Shown: positions 11,879 to 17,503 of the stretch, piece after piece | How the letters are laid out: each line of letters begins with the position of its first letter | Position numbering within the stretch: the first letter of the stretch is position 1 | From: Trueperaceae bacterium | GTDB lineage: Bacteria > Deinococcota > Deinococci > Deinococcales > Trueperaceae | Assembly: GCA_035703635.1 (NCBI GenBank) | Contig: DASSXV010000017.1 | Location: 1-18,544, forward strand | Direction: 5' to 3' | Length of the DNA: 18,544 bases | Made by a program: the position numbers and the translations under genes | The notes under the pieces: generated by a model | What the model saw: the letters and a program-made list of their open reading frames with translations, nothing else | What the model was told of the DNA's origin: nothing | Databases searched by the model: none

Positions 11879-12970
11879 ATGAGGTGGTTGAGGCGGGTCC
11901 TGCCCGTCGCCGTTCTCGCGCCGTTGTTGACTAGCTGCTCGCTGCAAGGCATGCAGTCTATGTTCAGCCCGGCCGGAAGCATCGCACAGGAGCAGTTGGA
12001 CCTGTTCATGTGGACGTGGTACCTGAGCATCCCGGTGATGATCGGTGTGTTCGGAGCCATGTTCTACGTCCTCGTTCGCTACCGGCGGCGTAAAGGCGAC
12101 CCGGAACCCGAGCAGTCGCACGGCAAGCCAGCTGTCGAGGTCATCCTCACTGTCGTGCCAGTCCTGATCATCGTCATGGTGGCGATCCCCACCGTGCGGT
12201 CGATTTTCCGGACCCAGTCGCACGTCGTGGCCACCAGCGACGACATCCAAGTGAACGTCATCGGGCACCAGTGGTGGTGGCAGTTCGAGTACCCCGACCT
12301 CGGGATCACGACCGCGAACGAACTCCACGTACCTGTTGGCAAGCGCGTCATCCTCCACCTCAACTCGGCGGACGTCGTGCACGCCTTCTGGGTGCCGCGC
12401 CTCGCAGGCAAGGTCGACCTCATCCCTAACCAGAACAACCAACTCTGGTTCGACACCAACGAGGACAGCATCGGCATCTACCCCGGCCAGTGCGCCGAAC
12501 TCTGCCTGGGAGCGCACGCATACATGCGCTTCCGCGTCGTCGTATCCGCGCAAGACGACTTCGACAGCTGGACTGCCGAGTTCCAAAAGCCGGTCGTCCA
12601 GACCGTGGCTAGCGACCCGCTAGTCACCCAAGGCCGCCAGCTCGTGGCCAACAAGGGCTGCATCGGCTGCCACAACATCGGCAACTACGCCGAGGGCGTT
12701 ACTTACGGCCAGCCGCAGTTCCCTGACCTGACCAACTTCGGCCTGCGCAACACCGTCGGGGCTGGTGTACTCGATGCAACGCCGGAGAACGTCGCCAAGT
12801 GGATCGCCGACCCGCAGTCCGTCAAGCCGGGCAACCGCATGCCGACCCTATGGGCCGCCAACGACCCGAAACGTGACCAGGAGGCGGCTGCCATCGCCGC
12901 TTACTTGCTGAGCCTCGGCGTCGCTGATACCAACCAGGCGCTCGCTCATGCTTCAACGGGAGGCAACTGA
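11879..12970 (+). CDS. coxB: Cytochrome c oxidase subunit II with fused cytochrome c (caa3 type), predicted lipoprotein
   Basis: Lipobox LTSC, two TM helices, GHQWWWQFEY, CuA ligands DVVH...CAELCLGAHAYM, C-terminal CIGCH...KPGNRMP heme c domain. Start is ATG 11879 or GTG 11873 after AGGAGG. Confidence 0.95.
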   Translation: MRWLRRVLPVAVLAPLLTSCSLQGMQSMFSPAGSIAQEQLDLFMWTWYLSIPVMIGVFGAMFYVLVRYRRRKGDPEPEQSHGKPAVEVILTVVPVLIIVMVAIPTVRSIFRTQSHVVATSDDIQVNVIGHQWWWQFEYPDLGITTANELHVPVGKRVILHLNSADVVHAFWVPRLAGKVDLIPNQNNQLWFDTNEDSIGIYPGQCAELCLGAHAYMRFRVVVSAQDDFDSWTAEFQKPVVQTVASDPLVTQGRQLVANKGCIGCHNIGNYAEGVTYGQPQFPDLTNFGLRNTVGAGVLDATPENVAKWIADPQSVKPGNRMPTLWAANDPKRDQEAAAIAAYLLSLGVADTNQALAHASTGGN

Positions 12971-14862
12971 TGGCCACGACGCAGACCGCGGTATCCACGC
13001 GGGGTAGGCTCTTCGTCCGCCCAACCTGGACGAGGGGCATCGGCTCCTGGCTGACCACCGTCGACCACAAGCGCCTAGGCATCCTCTATATCGTCTCGGC
13101 GTTCATCTTCATGGGCGCCGCCGCCACCGAGGCGTTCATCATGCGCCTCCAACTCCTCACCCCGAACATGAACGTGGTCAACCCCGACCAGTTCAACCAG
13201 CTATTCACCATGCACGGCGTGACCATGGTGTTCCTCGCCATCATGCCGCTAGGCATCGGCTTAGCCAACTACTTCGTGCCACTGCAGATCGGCGCGCGCG
13301 ACCTCGCGTTCCCGCGCCTGAACGCGTTCGGGTATTGGGTCTACGCGTTCGGCGGCCTGATGATCTACACGTCATGGTTCCTTGGCGGCGCACCAGACAT
13401 GGGCTGGGTGGCTTACGCGCCGCTAACCTCGCTGTCGCACAACCCTGGCCTAGGCGTCGACTTCTACATGTTCGGCCTGTTCATCAGCGGCATCGGCACG
13501 ACGGGCACGGCGATGAACCTCATCGTGACCATCGTCAGCATGCGCGCTCCCGGCATGACCATGATGCGAGTGCCCGTGTTCGCCTGGATGATGCTCATCA
13601 CGTCGTTCATGATCATCTTCGCGTTCCCGCCGCTCACGATCGCGTTCCTCGAGATCATCCTCGACCGAACCTTCGGCACGCTCTTCTTCGTGCAAGAAGC
13701 AGGGGCGCTGCCGATCTTGTGGCAGCACCTGTTCTGGATCTTCGGTCACCCGGAGGTCTACATCATCATCTTGCCCGCCTTCGGCGTGATCAGCGAGATC
13801 ATCCCGACGTTCTCGCGCAAACCGCTGTTCGGCTACCCGATCATGATCCTCTCCGGTATCCTCATCGGCTTCATGGGCTTCGCCGTGTGGACCCACCACA
13901 TGTTCACCACCGGCCTCGGCCCCGTCGTGAACACCGCTTTCTCGCTCACTTCGTTCGTCATCGGCATTCCGACGGGCGTGAAGATCTTCAACTGGCTCGG
14001 GACCTTGTGGGGCGGCAGTATCAGGTTCACTACTCCCCTGCTGTACGCGCTCGCCTTCCTCGTGACGTTCACCCTCGGCGGCATCACCGGCATCATGGTG
14101 GCCATGCCGACCTTCGACGCGCAGGTGCACGACACCTACTTCGTCGTGGCGCACTTCCACTACGTGATGGGCGGCGGCGCCCTGATGGCGTTCTTCGGCG
14201 CCCTCTACTACTGGTTCCCCAAGATGACGGGCAAGATGATGTCCGAGCGCCTCGGCAAGATCGCCTGGGTGTTCACGGTGCTCGGCTTCCACCTGCTCTT
14301 CTTCCCGCAGCACCTAGCCGGCATGCTCGGCATGCCGCGCCGCATCCAGACCTACCCAGAAGGCATCGGCCTGGAGCTCGTCAACATGCTCTCCACCATC
14401 GGCAGTTGGGTGATGGGCGTCGGCCTCATCCTCATCCTCGCCGGCGTCATCCACGCCTTCTTGCGCGGCAAGCCAGCAGGCAAGGACCCGTGGGACGCCC
14501 GCACCCTCGAGTGGACCACGTCATCCCCGCCTGCGTACTACGACTTCCCCGTTCAGCCGGTCGTCAACTCCCTCGATCCGCTCTGGGTCGAGAAGCACCC
14601 AGGCGCCATGGGCGGCGTAACCGCACCAGACCCTGAGAGCGGCAAGGCGTACGACGCCCACGGCATCCACATCCCTGGCCAGTCGTGGTTCCCGTTCGTC
14701 GCTGCCCTGGCCCTCGCCATCGGCTGCTACGGCCTCATGTACGACAACATCATCTTCGCCATCATCTGCGGCCTCGCGTTCATCTTCTGCATCTTCGGAT
14801 GGGCCTACGAGGGCGTAGGCGGCACGCACTTGCACCTTGACCTCGCGGAGGAAGGCCAATGA
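12970..14862 (+). CDS. ctaD: Cytochrome c oxidase subunit I, A1-type heme-copper oxidase
   Basis: DHKRLGILY, FTMHG, RDLAFPRLN (D-channel), WIFGHPEVY, WTHHMF, PTGVKIF (K-channel), VVAHFHY, GMPRR, plus two extra C-terminal TM helices after HIPGQSWFP. Confidence 0.97.
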   Translation: MATTQTAVSTRGRLFVRPTWTRGIGSWLTTVDHKRLGILYIVSAFIFMGAAATEAFIMRLQLLTPNMNVVNPDQFNQLFTMHGVTMVFLAIMPLGIGLANYFVPLQIGARDLAFPRLNAFGYWVYAFGGLMIYTSWFLGGAPDMGWVAYAPLTSLSHNPGLGVDFYMFGLFISGIGTTGTAMNLIVTIVSMRAPGMTMMRVPVFAWMMLITSFMIIFAFPPLTIAFLEIILDRTFGTLFFVQEAGALPILWQHLFWIFGHPEVYIIILPAFGVISEIIPTFSRKPLFGYPIMILSGILIGFMGFAVWTHHMFTTGLGPVVNTAFSLTSFVIGIPTGVKIFNWLGTLWGGSIRFTTPLLYALAFLVTFTLGGITGIMVAMPTFDAQVHDTYFVVAHFHYVMGGGALMAFFGALYYWFPKMTGKMMSERLGKIAWVFTVLGFHLLFFPQHLAGMLGMPRRIQTYPEGIGLELVNMLSTIGSWVMGVGLILILAGVIHAFLRGKPAGKDPWDARTLEWTTSSPPAYYDFPVQPVVNSLDPLWVEKHPGAMGGVTAPDPESGKAYDAHGIHIPGQSWFPFVAALALAIGCYGLMYDNIIFAIICGLAFIFCIFGWAYEGVGGTHLHLDLAEEGQ

Positions 14863-15473
14863 GCGCCGAAGCAAGCACCGCCGCCACGGGCGCCGTGGCG
14901 GCGCCATACCGTTCCAGCAAGCTGCCAGACGTCAAGTTGATGATGTGGGTGTTCCTCGCGTCAGACACCATGTTCTTCGGCTCGCTGATCGGCACCTACC
15001 TCGCCTATCACAACCGCAGTCTCGTCGGCCCCATGCCGCGCGACCTCTTCGACATCCCGCTAACCACGGTCAGCACGTTCGTGCTGCTCATGTCGAGCTT
15101 CCTCATGGTGCTCGCGCTCCACTCGCTGCGCGAGAGCGACATTGGCAAGTTCCGACTGTGGACACTTGGCGTCGCCGTGTTCGGCTCCATCTTCCTCGGG
15201 TTCCAGGTCTACGAGTTCACGCACTTCGCGAACGCGGGCCTGAGCATCCACCAGAACCTCTTCGGGACGACGTTCTTCATCCTTACCGGAACCCACGGGG
15301 TCCACGTGACGGTAGGCGTGCTCTGGCTAGTCAGCCTCTTGATCACCTCGTACCTGCGACCCATGCAGGCGAAAGACGCCGTCTACCTAGAGATCGCCGG
15401 CCTCTACTGGCACTTCGTCGACATCGTGTGGATCGTGATCTTCACGGTCGTCTACCTCGTGGAATTCTTGTGA
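14859..15473 (+). CDS. ctaE: Cytochrome c oxidase subunit III (short, 5-TM)
   Basis: MWVFLASDTMFF, TFVLLMSS, FLGFQVYEF, FFILTGTHGVHV, GLYWHFVDIVWIVIFTVVYL. ATGA overlap with subunit I. Confidence 0.95.
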   Translation: MSAEASTAATGAVAAPYRSSKLPDVKLMMWVFLASDTMFFGSLIGTYLAYHNRSLVGPMPRDLFDIPLTTVSTFVLLMSSFLMVLALHSLRESDIGKFRLWTLGVAVFGSIFLGFQVYEFTHFANAGLSIHQNLFGTTFFILTGTHGVHVTVGVLWLVSLLITSYLRPMQAKDAVYLEIAGLYWHFVDIVWIVIFTVVYLVEFL

Positions 15474-15489
15474 GCGGGGCTCTCGACTA

Positions 15490-16524
15490 ATGGCTGAAAG
15501 CAAGCACTCCTCCGTCACCAGCTACGTGATCGTCGCCCTCATCCTTGGCGTCATCACCTACATCGAGTTCGCGCTCGTCGAGTACCCGCAAGCGTGGCTC
15601 GGTAGCACCTGGACCCTCGTCTGGCTGATCGCCCTCTCGATCGTCAAGTTCATCATGGTCGTCATGTTCTTCATGCACCTCAAGGACGACGACCGCACCT
15701 ACACCGGCTTCTTCTCTAGCGGCATGTTCATAGCCCTAGCCACGTTCGTCGGCTTGACGGCCATGTTCGTCCTGCCGCGCGCCGTGGCCTCCACCAAGCC
15801 GGAGAACGTGGCAGCGGCCAACGCCGCCCACGCCGAGGTACCGGAAGCCTTGCTCGAGAACGTCGAGACGGGCGGCGCGTCACGCACGCCAGATCAGATC
15901 GCTGACACCCCCCGCGTGGCGGACCGCAGCGTGGGGATAACGCCCCCGACCGCAAGCAACGATGCGTCCACCTACAGCGTGACCGCCCCAACTACCGCGG
16001 CAGCTGGCACCCCGGCAGCAGCTGGCACCCCTGAAGCGGCGCCAGCTCAGGCTGGTGGCGCCGACGAGGCACCAGCAGCGGCCACGCCAGCCGCTGAAAC
16101 GCCAGCCGCAGCAGCCCCTGTCGAATGGGATGCCGCCCACGGCGCCACCGTCTTCAACTCCAACTGCATGGCCTGCCACCAGGCGACCGGCCAGGGCATC
16201 CCGGGAGCATTCCCGCCGCTTGCTGGTCACGCGGCTGACATCTACACGCTCGACGGCGGCCGCACCTACCTCCTCGACACCGTGTTGTTCGGCCTGCAAG
16301 GCCAGATCAACGTCAACGGGGCGGTTTACAACGGCGTCATGCCTGCCTGGAACCACCTCCCAGACGGCGACATCGCCGACGCCCTCAACCACGTGCTCAC
16401 CGCGTGGGGTACCGCGCCGGCAGGGTTCACGCCGTTCACGGCAGCCGACGTGGAAGCGCGCAGGCCTGACGCCCTCACCGCGGCCGACGTGCACGCCCAC
16501 CGCGAGGCCATCGGCCTGCAGTAA
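15490..16524 (+). CDS. Cytochrome c oxidase subunit IV (CtaF/COX4_pro-like) fused via a long linker to a cytochrome c552-like domain
   Basis: Residues ~1-98 form three TM helices with T..EF and KF..VV.FFMHLK motifs. Residues ~99-210 are an Ala/Pro/Thr/Glu linker. Residues ~211-344 contain CMACHQATGQGIPGAFPPLAGH...GLQGQI.VNG..YNGVMP. Confidence 0.9.
   Translation: MAESKHSSVTSYVIVALILGVITYIEFALVEYPQAWLGSTWTLVWLIALSIVKFIMVVMFFMHLKDDDRTYTGFFSSGMFIALATFVGLTAMFVLPRAVASTKPENVAAANAAHAEVPEALLENVETGGASRTPDQIADTPRVADRSVGITPPTASNDASTYSVTAPTTAAAGTPAAAGTPEAAPAQAGGADEAPAAATPAAETPAAAAPVEWDAAHGATVFNSNCMACHQATGQGIPGAFPPLAGHAADIYTLDGGRTYLLDTVLFGLQGQINVNGAVYNGVMPAWNHLPDGDIADALNHVLTAWGTAPAGFTPFTAADVEARRPDALTAADVHAHREAIGLQ
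15997..16032 (+). repeat. In-frame 18-bp tandem duplication (AAAGTP x2) in the linker
   Basis: gcggcagctggcaccccg gcagcagctggcacccct, 16/18 identical. Confidence 0.8.
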
Positions 16525-16567
16525 CTACTGCCCTAACCTCGGCAAGCCGCCATGCGGCGACCCGAGA

Positions 16568-16619
16568 CTGAACCCGAACCGAGCACTGCGGTTACCCGCC
16601 GTGCTCGGTTTGGGTTTAG
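16568..16619 (+). terminator. Long stem-loop after the oxidase structural genes (terminator or mRNA stabiliser)
   Basis: ctgaacccgaaccgagcac-t-gcgg[ttac]ccgc-c-gtgctcggtttgggtttag: 23 bp with two G-U pairs and one mismatch. No clean poly-U tail beyond the stem. Confidence 0.65.
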
Positions 16620-16684
16620 CATGGCACCACGCCCCGCTGGTCCCTAGAAGGCATCGGGCGGCGGCGGGAGAAGGACCTCAAGAG

Positions 16685-17503
16685 ATGCTCTACCTAGACT
16701 GGCAGTTGGAGCCCGTGCTCCTCGGAATGATCGCCACCGCAGCCGTGGCGTACTACCTCTCGGTGGGCCCGCTGCGCAAGCGCATAGCACCAGGGCAGCC
16801 GTACCCGACCGGGCACGCCATCGTCTTCGGGCTCGGCCTCCTGGCGCTGTTCCTAAACGAAGGCTCGCCCCTACACGACCTCGCCGAACGCTACTTGCTC
16901 TCGGCGCACATGCTGCAGCACCTGACGCTCACGTACGCCATCGCGCCGATCATCCTTGCAGGCACACCAAAGTGGCTGCTCAAGGCCTCGCTCGCCAACG
17001 CGCGCATGCTGCCGGTAACGAAAGTACTGCTCAGCCCGCTCATGGCTTTCGTGGTGTTCACGCTGGTGCTCTCCGTCTACCACCTACCCGCCATCTACGA
17101 CCTGGCGCTGTCCAACACTTCCCTGCACCACGCCGTTCACATCGTCATCCTCTTCGCATCCCTGATGGTCTGGTGGCCCATCATGAGCCCACTCGAGGAA
17201 CTCCCGCGTCCCGCGTTCATCGTGCGCATCGCGTACCTCTTCCTCCTGCCCGTCGCTCAGCTCCCGATCTTCGCTGGCATCACCTTCGCACCCGAACCGC
17301 TCTACGCCGCGTACGCCAACATGCCAGTGCGCGCCTTCGGCCTGTCGGTCCTCGAGGACCAGCAGATCAGCGGCGCCATCATGAAAGTAGCTGGCCTCAT
17401 CGCGTTCGGCATCCCGTTCATCGTCACGTTCCTGCAGTGGTTCATGAGCGAGGACAAGGGCCAAAGCTGGCGCCCTCAACCGCGGACACATAAGCCGTCG
17501 TGA
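16685..17503 (+). CDS. ctaG: Cytochrome c oxidase assembly factor CtaG (caa3/Bacillus type)
   Basis: Multi-TM protein with SPLHDLAERYLLSAHMLQH, APIILAGTP, YHLP.IYD, WWP, DQQISGAIMK. ATG 16685 follows a purine-rich gggagaagga stretch. Confidence 0.9.
   Translation: MLYLDWQLEPVLLGMIATAAVAYYLSVGPLRKRIAPGQPYPTGHAIVFGLGLLALFLNEGSPLHDLAERYLLSAHMLQHLTLTYAIAPIILAGTPKWLLKASLANARMLPVTKVLLSPLMAFVVFTLVLSVYHLPAIYDLALSNTSLHHAVHIVILFASLMVWWPIMSPLEELPRPAFIVRIAYLFLLPVAQLPIFAGITFAPEPLYAAYANMPVRAFGLSVLEDQQISGAIMKVAGLIAFGIPFIVTFLQWFMSEDKGQSWRPQPRTHKPS

Follow-up and report, generated by a model that had tools for sequence, protein, structure and literature searches.

Why would subunit IV of a terminal oxidase carry a heme of its own? 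Known members of the CyoD/QoxD/CtaF type are about 100–110 amino acids long and free of cofactors. In a Trueperaceae bacterium (Deinococcota; GenBank assembly GCA_035703635.1, contig DASSXV010000017.1), the corresponding gene encodes 344 amino acids, in one frame with zero internal stops, and its product includes a heme c domain, so it departs from the norm of a small, cofactor-free subunit IV. A first reading of the locus, made from the letters of the DNA only (hereafter, the sequence-only reading), proposed that a single uninterrupted frame joins subunit IV to a cytochrome c552, which would give the oxidase a second, built-in electron donor. Unless another locus is named, positions refer to the window, by which we mean the whole stretch of 18,544 nucleotides that was analyzed.

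A cytochrome c552 on oxidase subunit IV

The fusion gene is the fourth in an operon with the order II-I-III-IV, where it follows the gene for subunit III, and ctaG comes next (Table 1). Judged from its genes, the oxidase is a caa3-type enzyme of the A family: subunit II has both CuA and heme c, and the genome encodes heme a synthase (two matches to CtaA) as well as cytochrome c maturation genes. Across 38 aligned rows, the CuA ligands of subunit II (H168, C205, E207, C209, H213, and M216) and its heme ligands (C261, C264, H265, and M321) are invariant; together with the Pfam matches, this bears out the earlier claim that subunit II already carries a heme c. In subunit I, H260-P261-E262-V263-Y264 is invariant in the alignment, and the best solved match is aa3-600 of Bacillus, which scores above the caa3 of Thermus (2yev_A). 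Subunit I of the T. thermophilus caa3 has the YS motif of the A2 type. Because that enzyme (PDB 2YEV) has fused subunits I and III, while here I and III are separate and subunit I has GHPEVY, the two are not orthologues. At the start of the contig (49–2573, + strand), the gene for a one-helix membrane protein adjoins the gene for a 535-amino-acid coiled-coil protein with a Gly/Ser-rich tail.

Table 1. Features of the oxidase operon and of the fusion protein, in window coordinates.
Feature	Position	Strand	Evidence
Subunit II: lipobox Cys20, two helices, CuA domain, C-terminal heme c domain	11879..12970	+	Pfam COX2_TM, COX2, Cytochrom_C
Subunit I, 630 aa, A1-type (GHPEVY)	12970..14862	+	TIGR02891 above cut-off
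Subunit III, short, 204 aa	14859..15473	+	Pfam COX3
Subunit IV-cytochrome c552 fusion gene (P0001, 344 aa)	15490..16524	+	single ORF, spanned by independent contigs
Subunit IV membrane domain, three helices, aa 8-100, COX4_pro / CyoD-CtaF type	15511..15789	+	Pfam, hydropathy, model, CyoD profile match
Conserved outer arm, aa 116-165, consensus DGxSR..DxPxPKD..PP	15835..15984	+	alignments; kept in unfused L066/L067
Low-complexity Ala/Pro/Thr/Glu tether, aa 166-210, length variable among relatives	15985..16119	+	composition, model
Monoheme class I cytochrome c552 domain, aa 211-344 (CXXCH 16165-16179; Met284 16339-16341)	16120..16521	+	sequence, Pfam, fold
CtaG caa3 assembly factor	16685..17503	+	Pfam Caa3_CtaG, 171.7 bits

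Pfam finds COX4_pro (PF03626) at residues 13–85 of the fusion protein (42.4 bits, cut-off 28.9) and Cytochrom_C at residues 215–306 (36 bits, cut-off 21.3); TIGR02229 and TIGR02847 also match, with scores below their own cut-offs. There are three hydrophobic segments (residues 12–30, 43–61, and 77–95), and AlphaFold models helices at residues 8–31, 38–64, and 69–100. With a broad profile (A6), the membrane part matched CyoD of E. coli (6wti_D) across all three helices (E = 6.9e-5); a narrower profile (A1) gave zero matches. Foldseek with the membrane part gave no match either, and VIA-align aligned it to 6wti_D at 96 of 99 positions (Z = 7.5, rmsd = 6.0), a score that unrelated helical bundles also reach.

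Two further contigs span the frame itself without gaps: X15, from an RNA library, covers 15438–16488, and X14, from a DNA run, covers 15687–17500. The three differences from the window that they share are all silent. This rules out a frameshift or an assembly artifact as the source of the fusion. (The RNA-library contig shows presence in that library, which is not proof of transcription. The raw-read run X23 had no coverage of the gene.) The fusion is real, and the Pfam domains, the helices, and the spanning contigs agree with the single frame that was first proposed.

Between the two domains, the sequence-only reading saw a low-complexity linker of about 110 residues. This description fits about 45 of them (residues 166–210), of which 22 are alanine and for which AlphaFold gives a pLDDT under 50 over residues 166–194. 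It does not fit residues from about 116 to 165, which form a conserved arm. Prolines P141 and P143 of the arm occur in 90% or more of 38 aligned rows, the arm is retained even in proteins that have no cytochrome, and AlphaFold models two short helices there at moderate confidence (pLDDT about 55–85 by ten-residue block). A prediction of the arm (residues 100–170) in complex with subunits I and II gave a score of 0.00 and a mark of 0.32, in a run without controls, a result that speaks neither for nor against docking. Among 51 mono-heme proteins, the linker ranges from 57 to 282 residues; in the 39 of these where the motif pattern matched, the spacing from the arm to the cytochrome domain is 17–217 residues (median 59). 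At 3.5 Å per residue, a tether of 45 residues could reach about 160 Å at most. A separate signal peptide within the linker had been named as a finding that would speak against a tethered domain; by hydropathy, there is no second hydrophobic signal there.

CyoD has its N-terminus inside and its C-terminus outside, and our literature search found no paper that states this topology. Given the homology to CyoD and the lipoprotein-anchored versions of the same cytochrome domain (below), the heme domain of the fusion protein probably lies outside the membrane, on the CuA side.

As for the identity of the cytochrome, residues 216–343 match the c552 of T. thermophilus with E = 1e-37, and Foldseek places the domain on 1c52 with a TM(target) of 0.93, an rmsd of 1.7 Å, and 51% identity. 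These values confirm it as a Thermus-type c552 (CycA). The heme motif CMACH is at residues 226–230 (16165–16179) and the ligand M284 lies within YNGVMP, while FFMHLK of the subunit IV part is at residues 60–65; all three are where the sequence-only reading had put them. C226, C229, H230, and M284 are invariant across 59 aligned rows. After the Thermus protein, the closest solved relatives are the c domains that copper nitrite reductases carry on a tether.

The domain is acidic: it has 13 Asp or Glu residues and 4 Lys or Arg, with zero Lys. The surface of T. thermophilus c552 is basic and lysine-rich, and four homologues belonging to family f3 range from neutral to basic. We considered whether tethering compensates for the lost surface lysines, and we dropped this idea because the free c552 of the same genome is equally acidic.

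Candidate electron-transfer partners and a proposed shuttle

The sequence-only reading suggested either a bc complex or alternative complex III (ACIII) as the source of electrons, and only the second of these was found. A full ACIII operon, on contig C15, comprises five-heme ActA, ActB, ActC, ActD (by Pfam), the monoheme lipoprotein ActE, ActF, and an ActG-like protein. (ActA proteins of the family have 5 CXXCH motifs only.) Cytochrome b (PF13631) was not found in this genome, which is 97.65% complete, or in 17 genomes of the same genus, so we rejected the bc complex as the upstream partner.

The ActG-like gene, which is the last of the ACIII operon (L001:6505–7314, − strand; G000 C15:10501–11313), encodes one helix and, on an Ala/Pro linker, another c552 domain, 54% identical to the one on subunit IV. 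Among 26 further ACIII loci of the family, this gene carries c552 in 17 (with 2–3 copies in two), lacks it in 8, and is cut in 1, so c552 is retained more consistently on subunit IV. Another ActC-like (NrfD) gene, 56% identical to the first, has no other Act genes detected nearby (L307:6135–7787; G000 C62).

The genome also encodes a stand-alone c552 (C2:40371–40874; 56% identical) with a signal-like sequence at its N-terminus and, in addition, three more membrane or fusion genes with c552, including a CcoO-c552 fusion. The earlier reading had offered the absence of a free cycA as a check and had raised the possibility of electron transfer without a diffusible carrier; given the free c552, that possibility is unsupported.

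We lean, by a little more than an even chance, toward the view that the tethered c552 is a shuttle that ferries one electron at a time, on its leash, from ACIII to subunit II, where either the heme c or the CuA would accept it. In this scheme, the fusion protein would be built into the oxidase as its subunit IV and would anchor c552 outside the membrane by three helices (N-in, C-out), the conserved arm, and a flexible tether of about 45 residues. The domain would pick up a single electron where the heme wire of ACIII ends, which could be at ActE, the last heme of ActA, or the c552 of ActG. Once loaded, it would swing across and reduce the heme c or the CuA of subunit II. The oxidase would thus hold two c hemes, one fixed and one mobile, and the captive carrier would couple quinol oxidation by ACIII to oxygen reduction, alongside free c552 rather than replacing it.

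Thermus c552 is the donor to the ba3 and caa3 oxidases (PMC3561395), and the homology of the tethered domain to this physiological donor argues for the shuttle. Several observations in the genome argue against it. With free c552 and the c552 of ActG both present, the need for another tethered copy is not obvious. The candidate partners (the CuA domain, ActE, and ActA) are all net acidic, as is the c552 domain, so there is no charge complementarity. Finally, c552 is fused to many proteins in this family, and a general habit of making such fusions fits as well as a specific role.

Other redox enzymes are encoded in the genome. Sec-type NosZ is present (TIGR04246 above cut-off), in a Sec-type (clade II) nosZ cluster with a monoheme cytochrome c gene upstream (L007:3081–8949; G000 C88). 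A cbb3-like cluster (L003:51–3742; G000 C35) has a CcoN-like gene, a CcoO-c552-like fusion, and a short membrane gene, and a gene with a soluble domain, a helix, and a cytochrome c takes the place of CcoP. Two genes lie at contig ends, one for a divergent heme-copper subunit I without any NCBIfam match (L004:3–1799) and one for a diheme membrane cytochrome (L006:7906–8865); these are possibly one NO reductase-like pair.

Could the tethered heme be a branch point that diverts electrons to the N2O reductase, the NO reductase-like enzyme, or the cbb3-like oxidase? Potential acceptors exist, namely NosZ, the CcoN/CcoO pair of the cbb3-like cluster, and a divergent enzyme that is the third of the heme-copper type; the relatives tethered to copper nitrite reductases point in the same direction; and the extra heme of Neisseria CcoP is a precedent (PMC8552683). 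We nevertheless consider a branch point improbable, because the fusion is near-universal in the family (below) and because a terminal oxidase would be an indirect site for an outlet when ActG and free c552 are available.

Spread of the fusion and its natural variants

At an E threshold of 0.001, the fusion protein had 504 homologues. Both domains are present in 119 of the 120 that were listed, and every NCBI organism label among the matches listed is Trueperaceae. A match to subunit IV was found in 108 of 128 genomes of the family (our family tallies include the unpublished genome G089), and we examined 80 of the 107 loci outside the bacterium's own genome. Of these, 65 are fused, with one CXXCH in 53, two in 10, and three in 2 (lower bounds for any locus that is cut). 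Another 4 are interrupted, by runs of N inside the linker (L013, L047, and L055) or by a contig edge (L030), and 11 are unfused (2 in genus g15 and 9 in g27). At one locus, L060, what looks like a frameshift interrupts the tandem domains. Overall, the fusion is represented in 29 of 32 genera. The survey of domain architectures that was called for at the outset thus identifies the fusion as a family trait of the Trueperaceae, and its breadth, with 4 more loci merely cut by gaps or contig ends, favors the shuttle. In a sample of 261 genomes from the phylum, PF03626 was found in 12 of 184 genomes from other families, in open frames of 115–273 amino acids.

Some proteins have more than one heme domain: c552 is doubled or tripled at 12 of the 65 fused loci, and 36 of 121 homologous proteins have two CXXCH motifs. 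In g13 and g14, one c552 copy follows helix 3 immediately after a spacer of 12–19 residues, which is too short for a far swing. Such arrangements would suit an electron store or entry port that collects from soluble c552 or from periplasmic dehydrogenases, with tandem copies as a buffer for the four-electron reaction with oxygen. However, in 53 of the 65 fused loci a lone domain hangs from a long tether, and the near-identical tandem copies in L068 look like recent duplications, so we give the store or port quite a low probability.

Also in favor of the shuttle, ActC is present in 112 of 128 genomes of the family, versus 22 of 128 for cytochrome b. In g27, ACIII was not found (0 of 10 genomes) and cytochrome b is present (10 of 10). 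There, the old locus retains a degenerate subunit IV remnant of about 120 amino acids with no oxidase genes around it, and in one genome (G095; L301 and L302) an operon with the order II-I-III-ctaG-Rieske-cytochrome b/c lies beside gyrB, where the bacterium's own genome has ACIII. This exchange of chains supports the shuttle but counts as one event. On the other side, twelve genomes of the family outside g27 have cytochrome b as well as ACIII.

The unfused genus g15 is surrounded by fused genera on a tree of subunit I (87 rows, quick method, several starred branches). Its subunit IV ends after the arm, at 186 amino acids, and c552 is instead a lipobox-anchored protein with an acidic linker of about 240 residues, whose gene adjoins ctaG far from the oxidase operon (L298:3259–4482; L299). 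In G027, a g15 genome on a single contig, this lipoprotein is the only c552-type match. It is 72% identical to the fused domain of g25 and 67–70% identical to the domains of g16, values that do not single out one origin. In g16, a second, lipobox c552 gene lies between the fused subunit IV and ctaG (L071:1740–2426, − strand; L075; L077). Its identity to the fused domain is about 80%, and in two genomes it is 81–83% identical to the fused copy of the same genome. Together, g27, g15, and g16 suggest that the domain acts outside the membrane and stays tethered, though by an anchor that can be swapped. The tethered shuttle gains from the persistence of c552 on a lipid anchor in a genus nested among fused ones. 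At the same time, if the anchor is exchangeable, it may be of no importance that the attachment point is subunit IV in particular.

This raises the question of whether subunit IV is a mere export signal and membrane anchor. The c552 would then be a general carrier similar to cytochrome cy, co-expressed one-to-one with the oxidase and either serving any nearby complex or cleaved off. The lipid anchors that replace the fusion in g15 and duplicate it in g16 would be expected, as would the wide range of linker lengths in the 51 mono-heme proteins and the presence of c552 on ActG, on a ba3-like subunit II, and on CcoO. We find this unlikely, albeit worth keeping in mind, because the fusion occurs in 29 of 32 genera and the c552 of ActG in just 17 of 26 ACIII loci, because the linker lacks a second hydrophobic signal, and because three unrelated carriers occur on this same subunit. 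(In a tree of 71 c552 domains, based on 136 columns and a quick method and with 5 starred branches, there are 12 changes, at least 3 of them forced, and the tree does not show one origin for the tethered domains.)

The unrelated carriers come from other taxa. Outside the Trueperaceae, a cytochrome c is fused to subunit IV in 9 of 56 loci (8 of the 16 labelled Dehalococcoidia and 1 labelled Bacteroidota). These cytochromes are not c552-like (best E = 0.027) and are nearer to the heme domain of subunit II. A blue-copper domain replaces the cytochrome in other proteins (representatives P0263 and P0267), and four metagenome loci (L198–L201) have this form in caa3-type operons with the order II-I-III-IV. 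In ten checked loci with such other carriers, subunit II with CuA and heme c is kept. That unrelated carriers occupy the same position is another argument for the shuttle.

One or two cytochrome c domains of types other than c552 were seen on subunit IV at L112, L113, L126, L127, L129, L133, L145, L160, and L164; L133 has two CXXCH motifs in subunit II as well. Further fusions to such domains are at L205–L212 and L238 and in P0236 and P0167. P0174, P0178, P0179, and P0188 have a subunit IV with an N-terminal domain of about 120 amino acids that belongs to no Pfam family, and one of them also has a C-terminal cytochrome c. A search across the class Dehalococcoidia gave mostly short open frames. 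The ESM Atlas has further clusters that combine subunit IV with cytochrome c, with Gemmatimonadota as the commonest phylum (score 0.89), which we treat as a lead only.

For 50 of the 56 genomes outside the Trueperaceae, we tallied ActC and cytochrome b. Each of the 9 genomes with a cytochrome c fusion has an ActC-like gene and lacks cytochrome b, and fused subunit IV occurs in 0 of 23 genomes with cytochrome b. These 9 genomes represent only two or three lineages, so the association is consistent with the shuttle but is not a statistical test. Also, in 18 of the 27 genomes with ACIII only, subunit IV is unfused, which weighs against the shuttle. On the subunit I tree, fused versus unfused requires 4 changes and the type of carrier requires 6, which fits either repeated fusion or one fusion followed by swaps and losses.

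Comparison with known systems

The membrane part of the fusion protein is like CyoD, QoxD, and CtaF in its three helices, in the HL motif before helix 3, and in its place after a short subunit III; the conserved arm, the tether, and the heme c domain have no counterpart in those proteins. The cytochrome part is like Thermus c552 (1c52 and 1dt1) in fold, identity (51–53%), CXXCH and Met ligand, and heme-edge motifs. Thermus c552 is a free periplasmic protein, whereas the domain here is covalently tied to the oxidase, acidic, and lysine-free. The three-domain heme-Cu nitrite reductases of Ralstonia pickettii (3ziy) and Pseudoalteromonas (2zoo) have a related c domain (36–42% identity) that is also tethered to the copper enzyme it serves. 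Unlike the subunit IV fusion, they are soluble, with a short linker and with donor and acceptor in one chain.

Tethered shuttles between complexes III and IV are known. In the ACIII-aa3 supercomplex of Flavobacterium johnsoniae, a mobile, membrane-anchored monoheme domain at the N-terminus of ActA is the proposed shuttle from ACIII to the A-type oxidase (PMC8552683, PMC5928083), and ActE proved dispensable (PMC8552683). That shuttle sits on the donor complex and replaces the heme c of subunit II; the one proposed here is on the oxidase, subunit II keeps its heme c, and ActA has five hemes. In Rhodobacter, cytochrome cy, found in III-IV supercomplexes, has a long linker, is confined to the membrane surface, and coexists with a soluble carrier (PMC8361435). 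Whereas cy works with bc1 and brings an anchor of its own, the Trueperaceae c552 is held by an oxidase subunit and would be fed by ACIII. The Trueperaceae protein shares with both a monoheme domain, a flexible linker, a membrane anchor, and a complex III in the genome. CtaE and CtaF of Mycobacterium smegmatis face complex III (PMC8361435), which, with the mobile ActA domain, is a precedent for the shuttle. The precedent on the other side is Rhodothermus marinus, which has ActABCDEFG with a five-heme ActA, a monoheme lipoprotein ActE, and a caa3, and for which direct transfer from ActE to subunit IIc, without such a shuttle, was proposed (PMC5928083). ActG of R. marinus is cofactor-free; in the Trueperaceae, ActG often carries c552 and subunit IV almost always does.

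The combination of domains has been listed before. Table A3 of PMC8756737 includes "COX IV" among the domains found with a Chloroflexi-type cytochrome c (PKB63614.1 and PIQ26724.1), apparently without discussing it, so the general architecture of a subunit IV plus a cytochrome c is uncharacterized rather than unseen. COX1-COX4 fusions (PMC4013037) are a different architecture. In the open literature, we found no characterization of a subunit IV-c552 fusion; most subscription journals lie outside that scope, and we call it novel provisionally. Automatic names from JGI already give both domains, but other annotation says either "subunit IV" or "cytochrome c," which hides the fusion. Tethered III-IV electron shuttles are a known kind, and what is provisionally new here is the unexpected anchor, an oxidase subunit IV.

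The fusion would give a positive role to a subunit usually seen as structural. Proposals differ on how ACIII hands electrons to an oxidase, with direct transfer from ActE in Rhodothermus and a mobile ActA domain in Flavobacterium, and the Trueperaceae add a third layout. Their natural variants (0, 1, 2, or 3 domains; ActG with or without heme; protein or lipid anchor) make tethered versus diffusing transfer testable. More broadly, and as a tentative suggestion that we would not yet bet on, the outer end of subunit IV may be a general and hitherto undescribed socket in which bacteria that use ACIII mount a captive electron carrier, filled at least three times by unrelated carriers: c552 in the Trueperaceae, other class I cytochromes c in Dehalococcoidia and other taxa, and blue-copper domains in further lineages. 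The ACIII-caa3 chain of the Trueperaceae, perhaps wired by leashed c552 on both ActG and subunit IV and with a clamp-like arm, would then be a third ACIII-oxidase architecture beside those of Rhodothermus and Flavobacterium.
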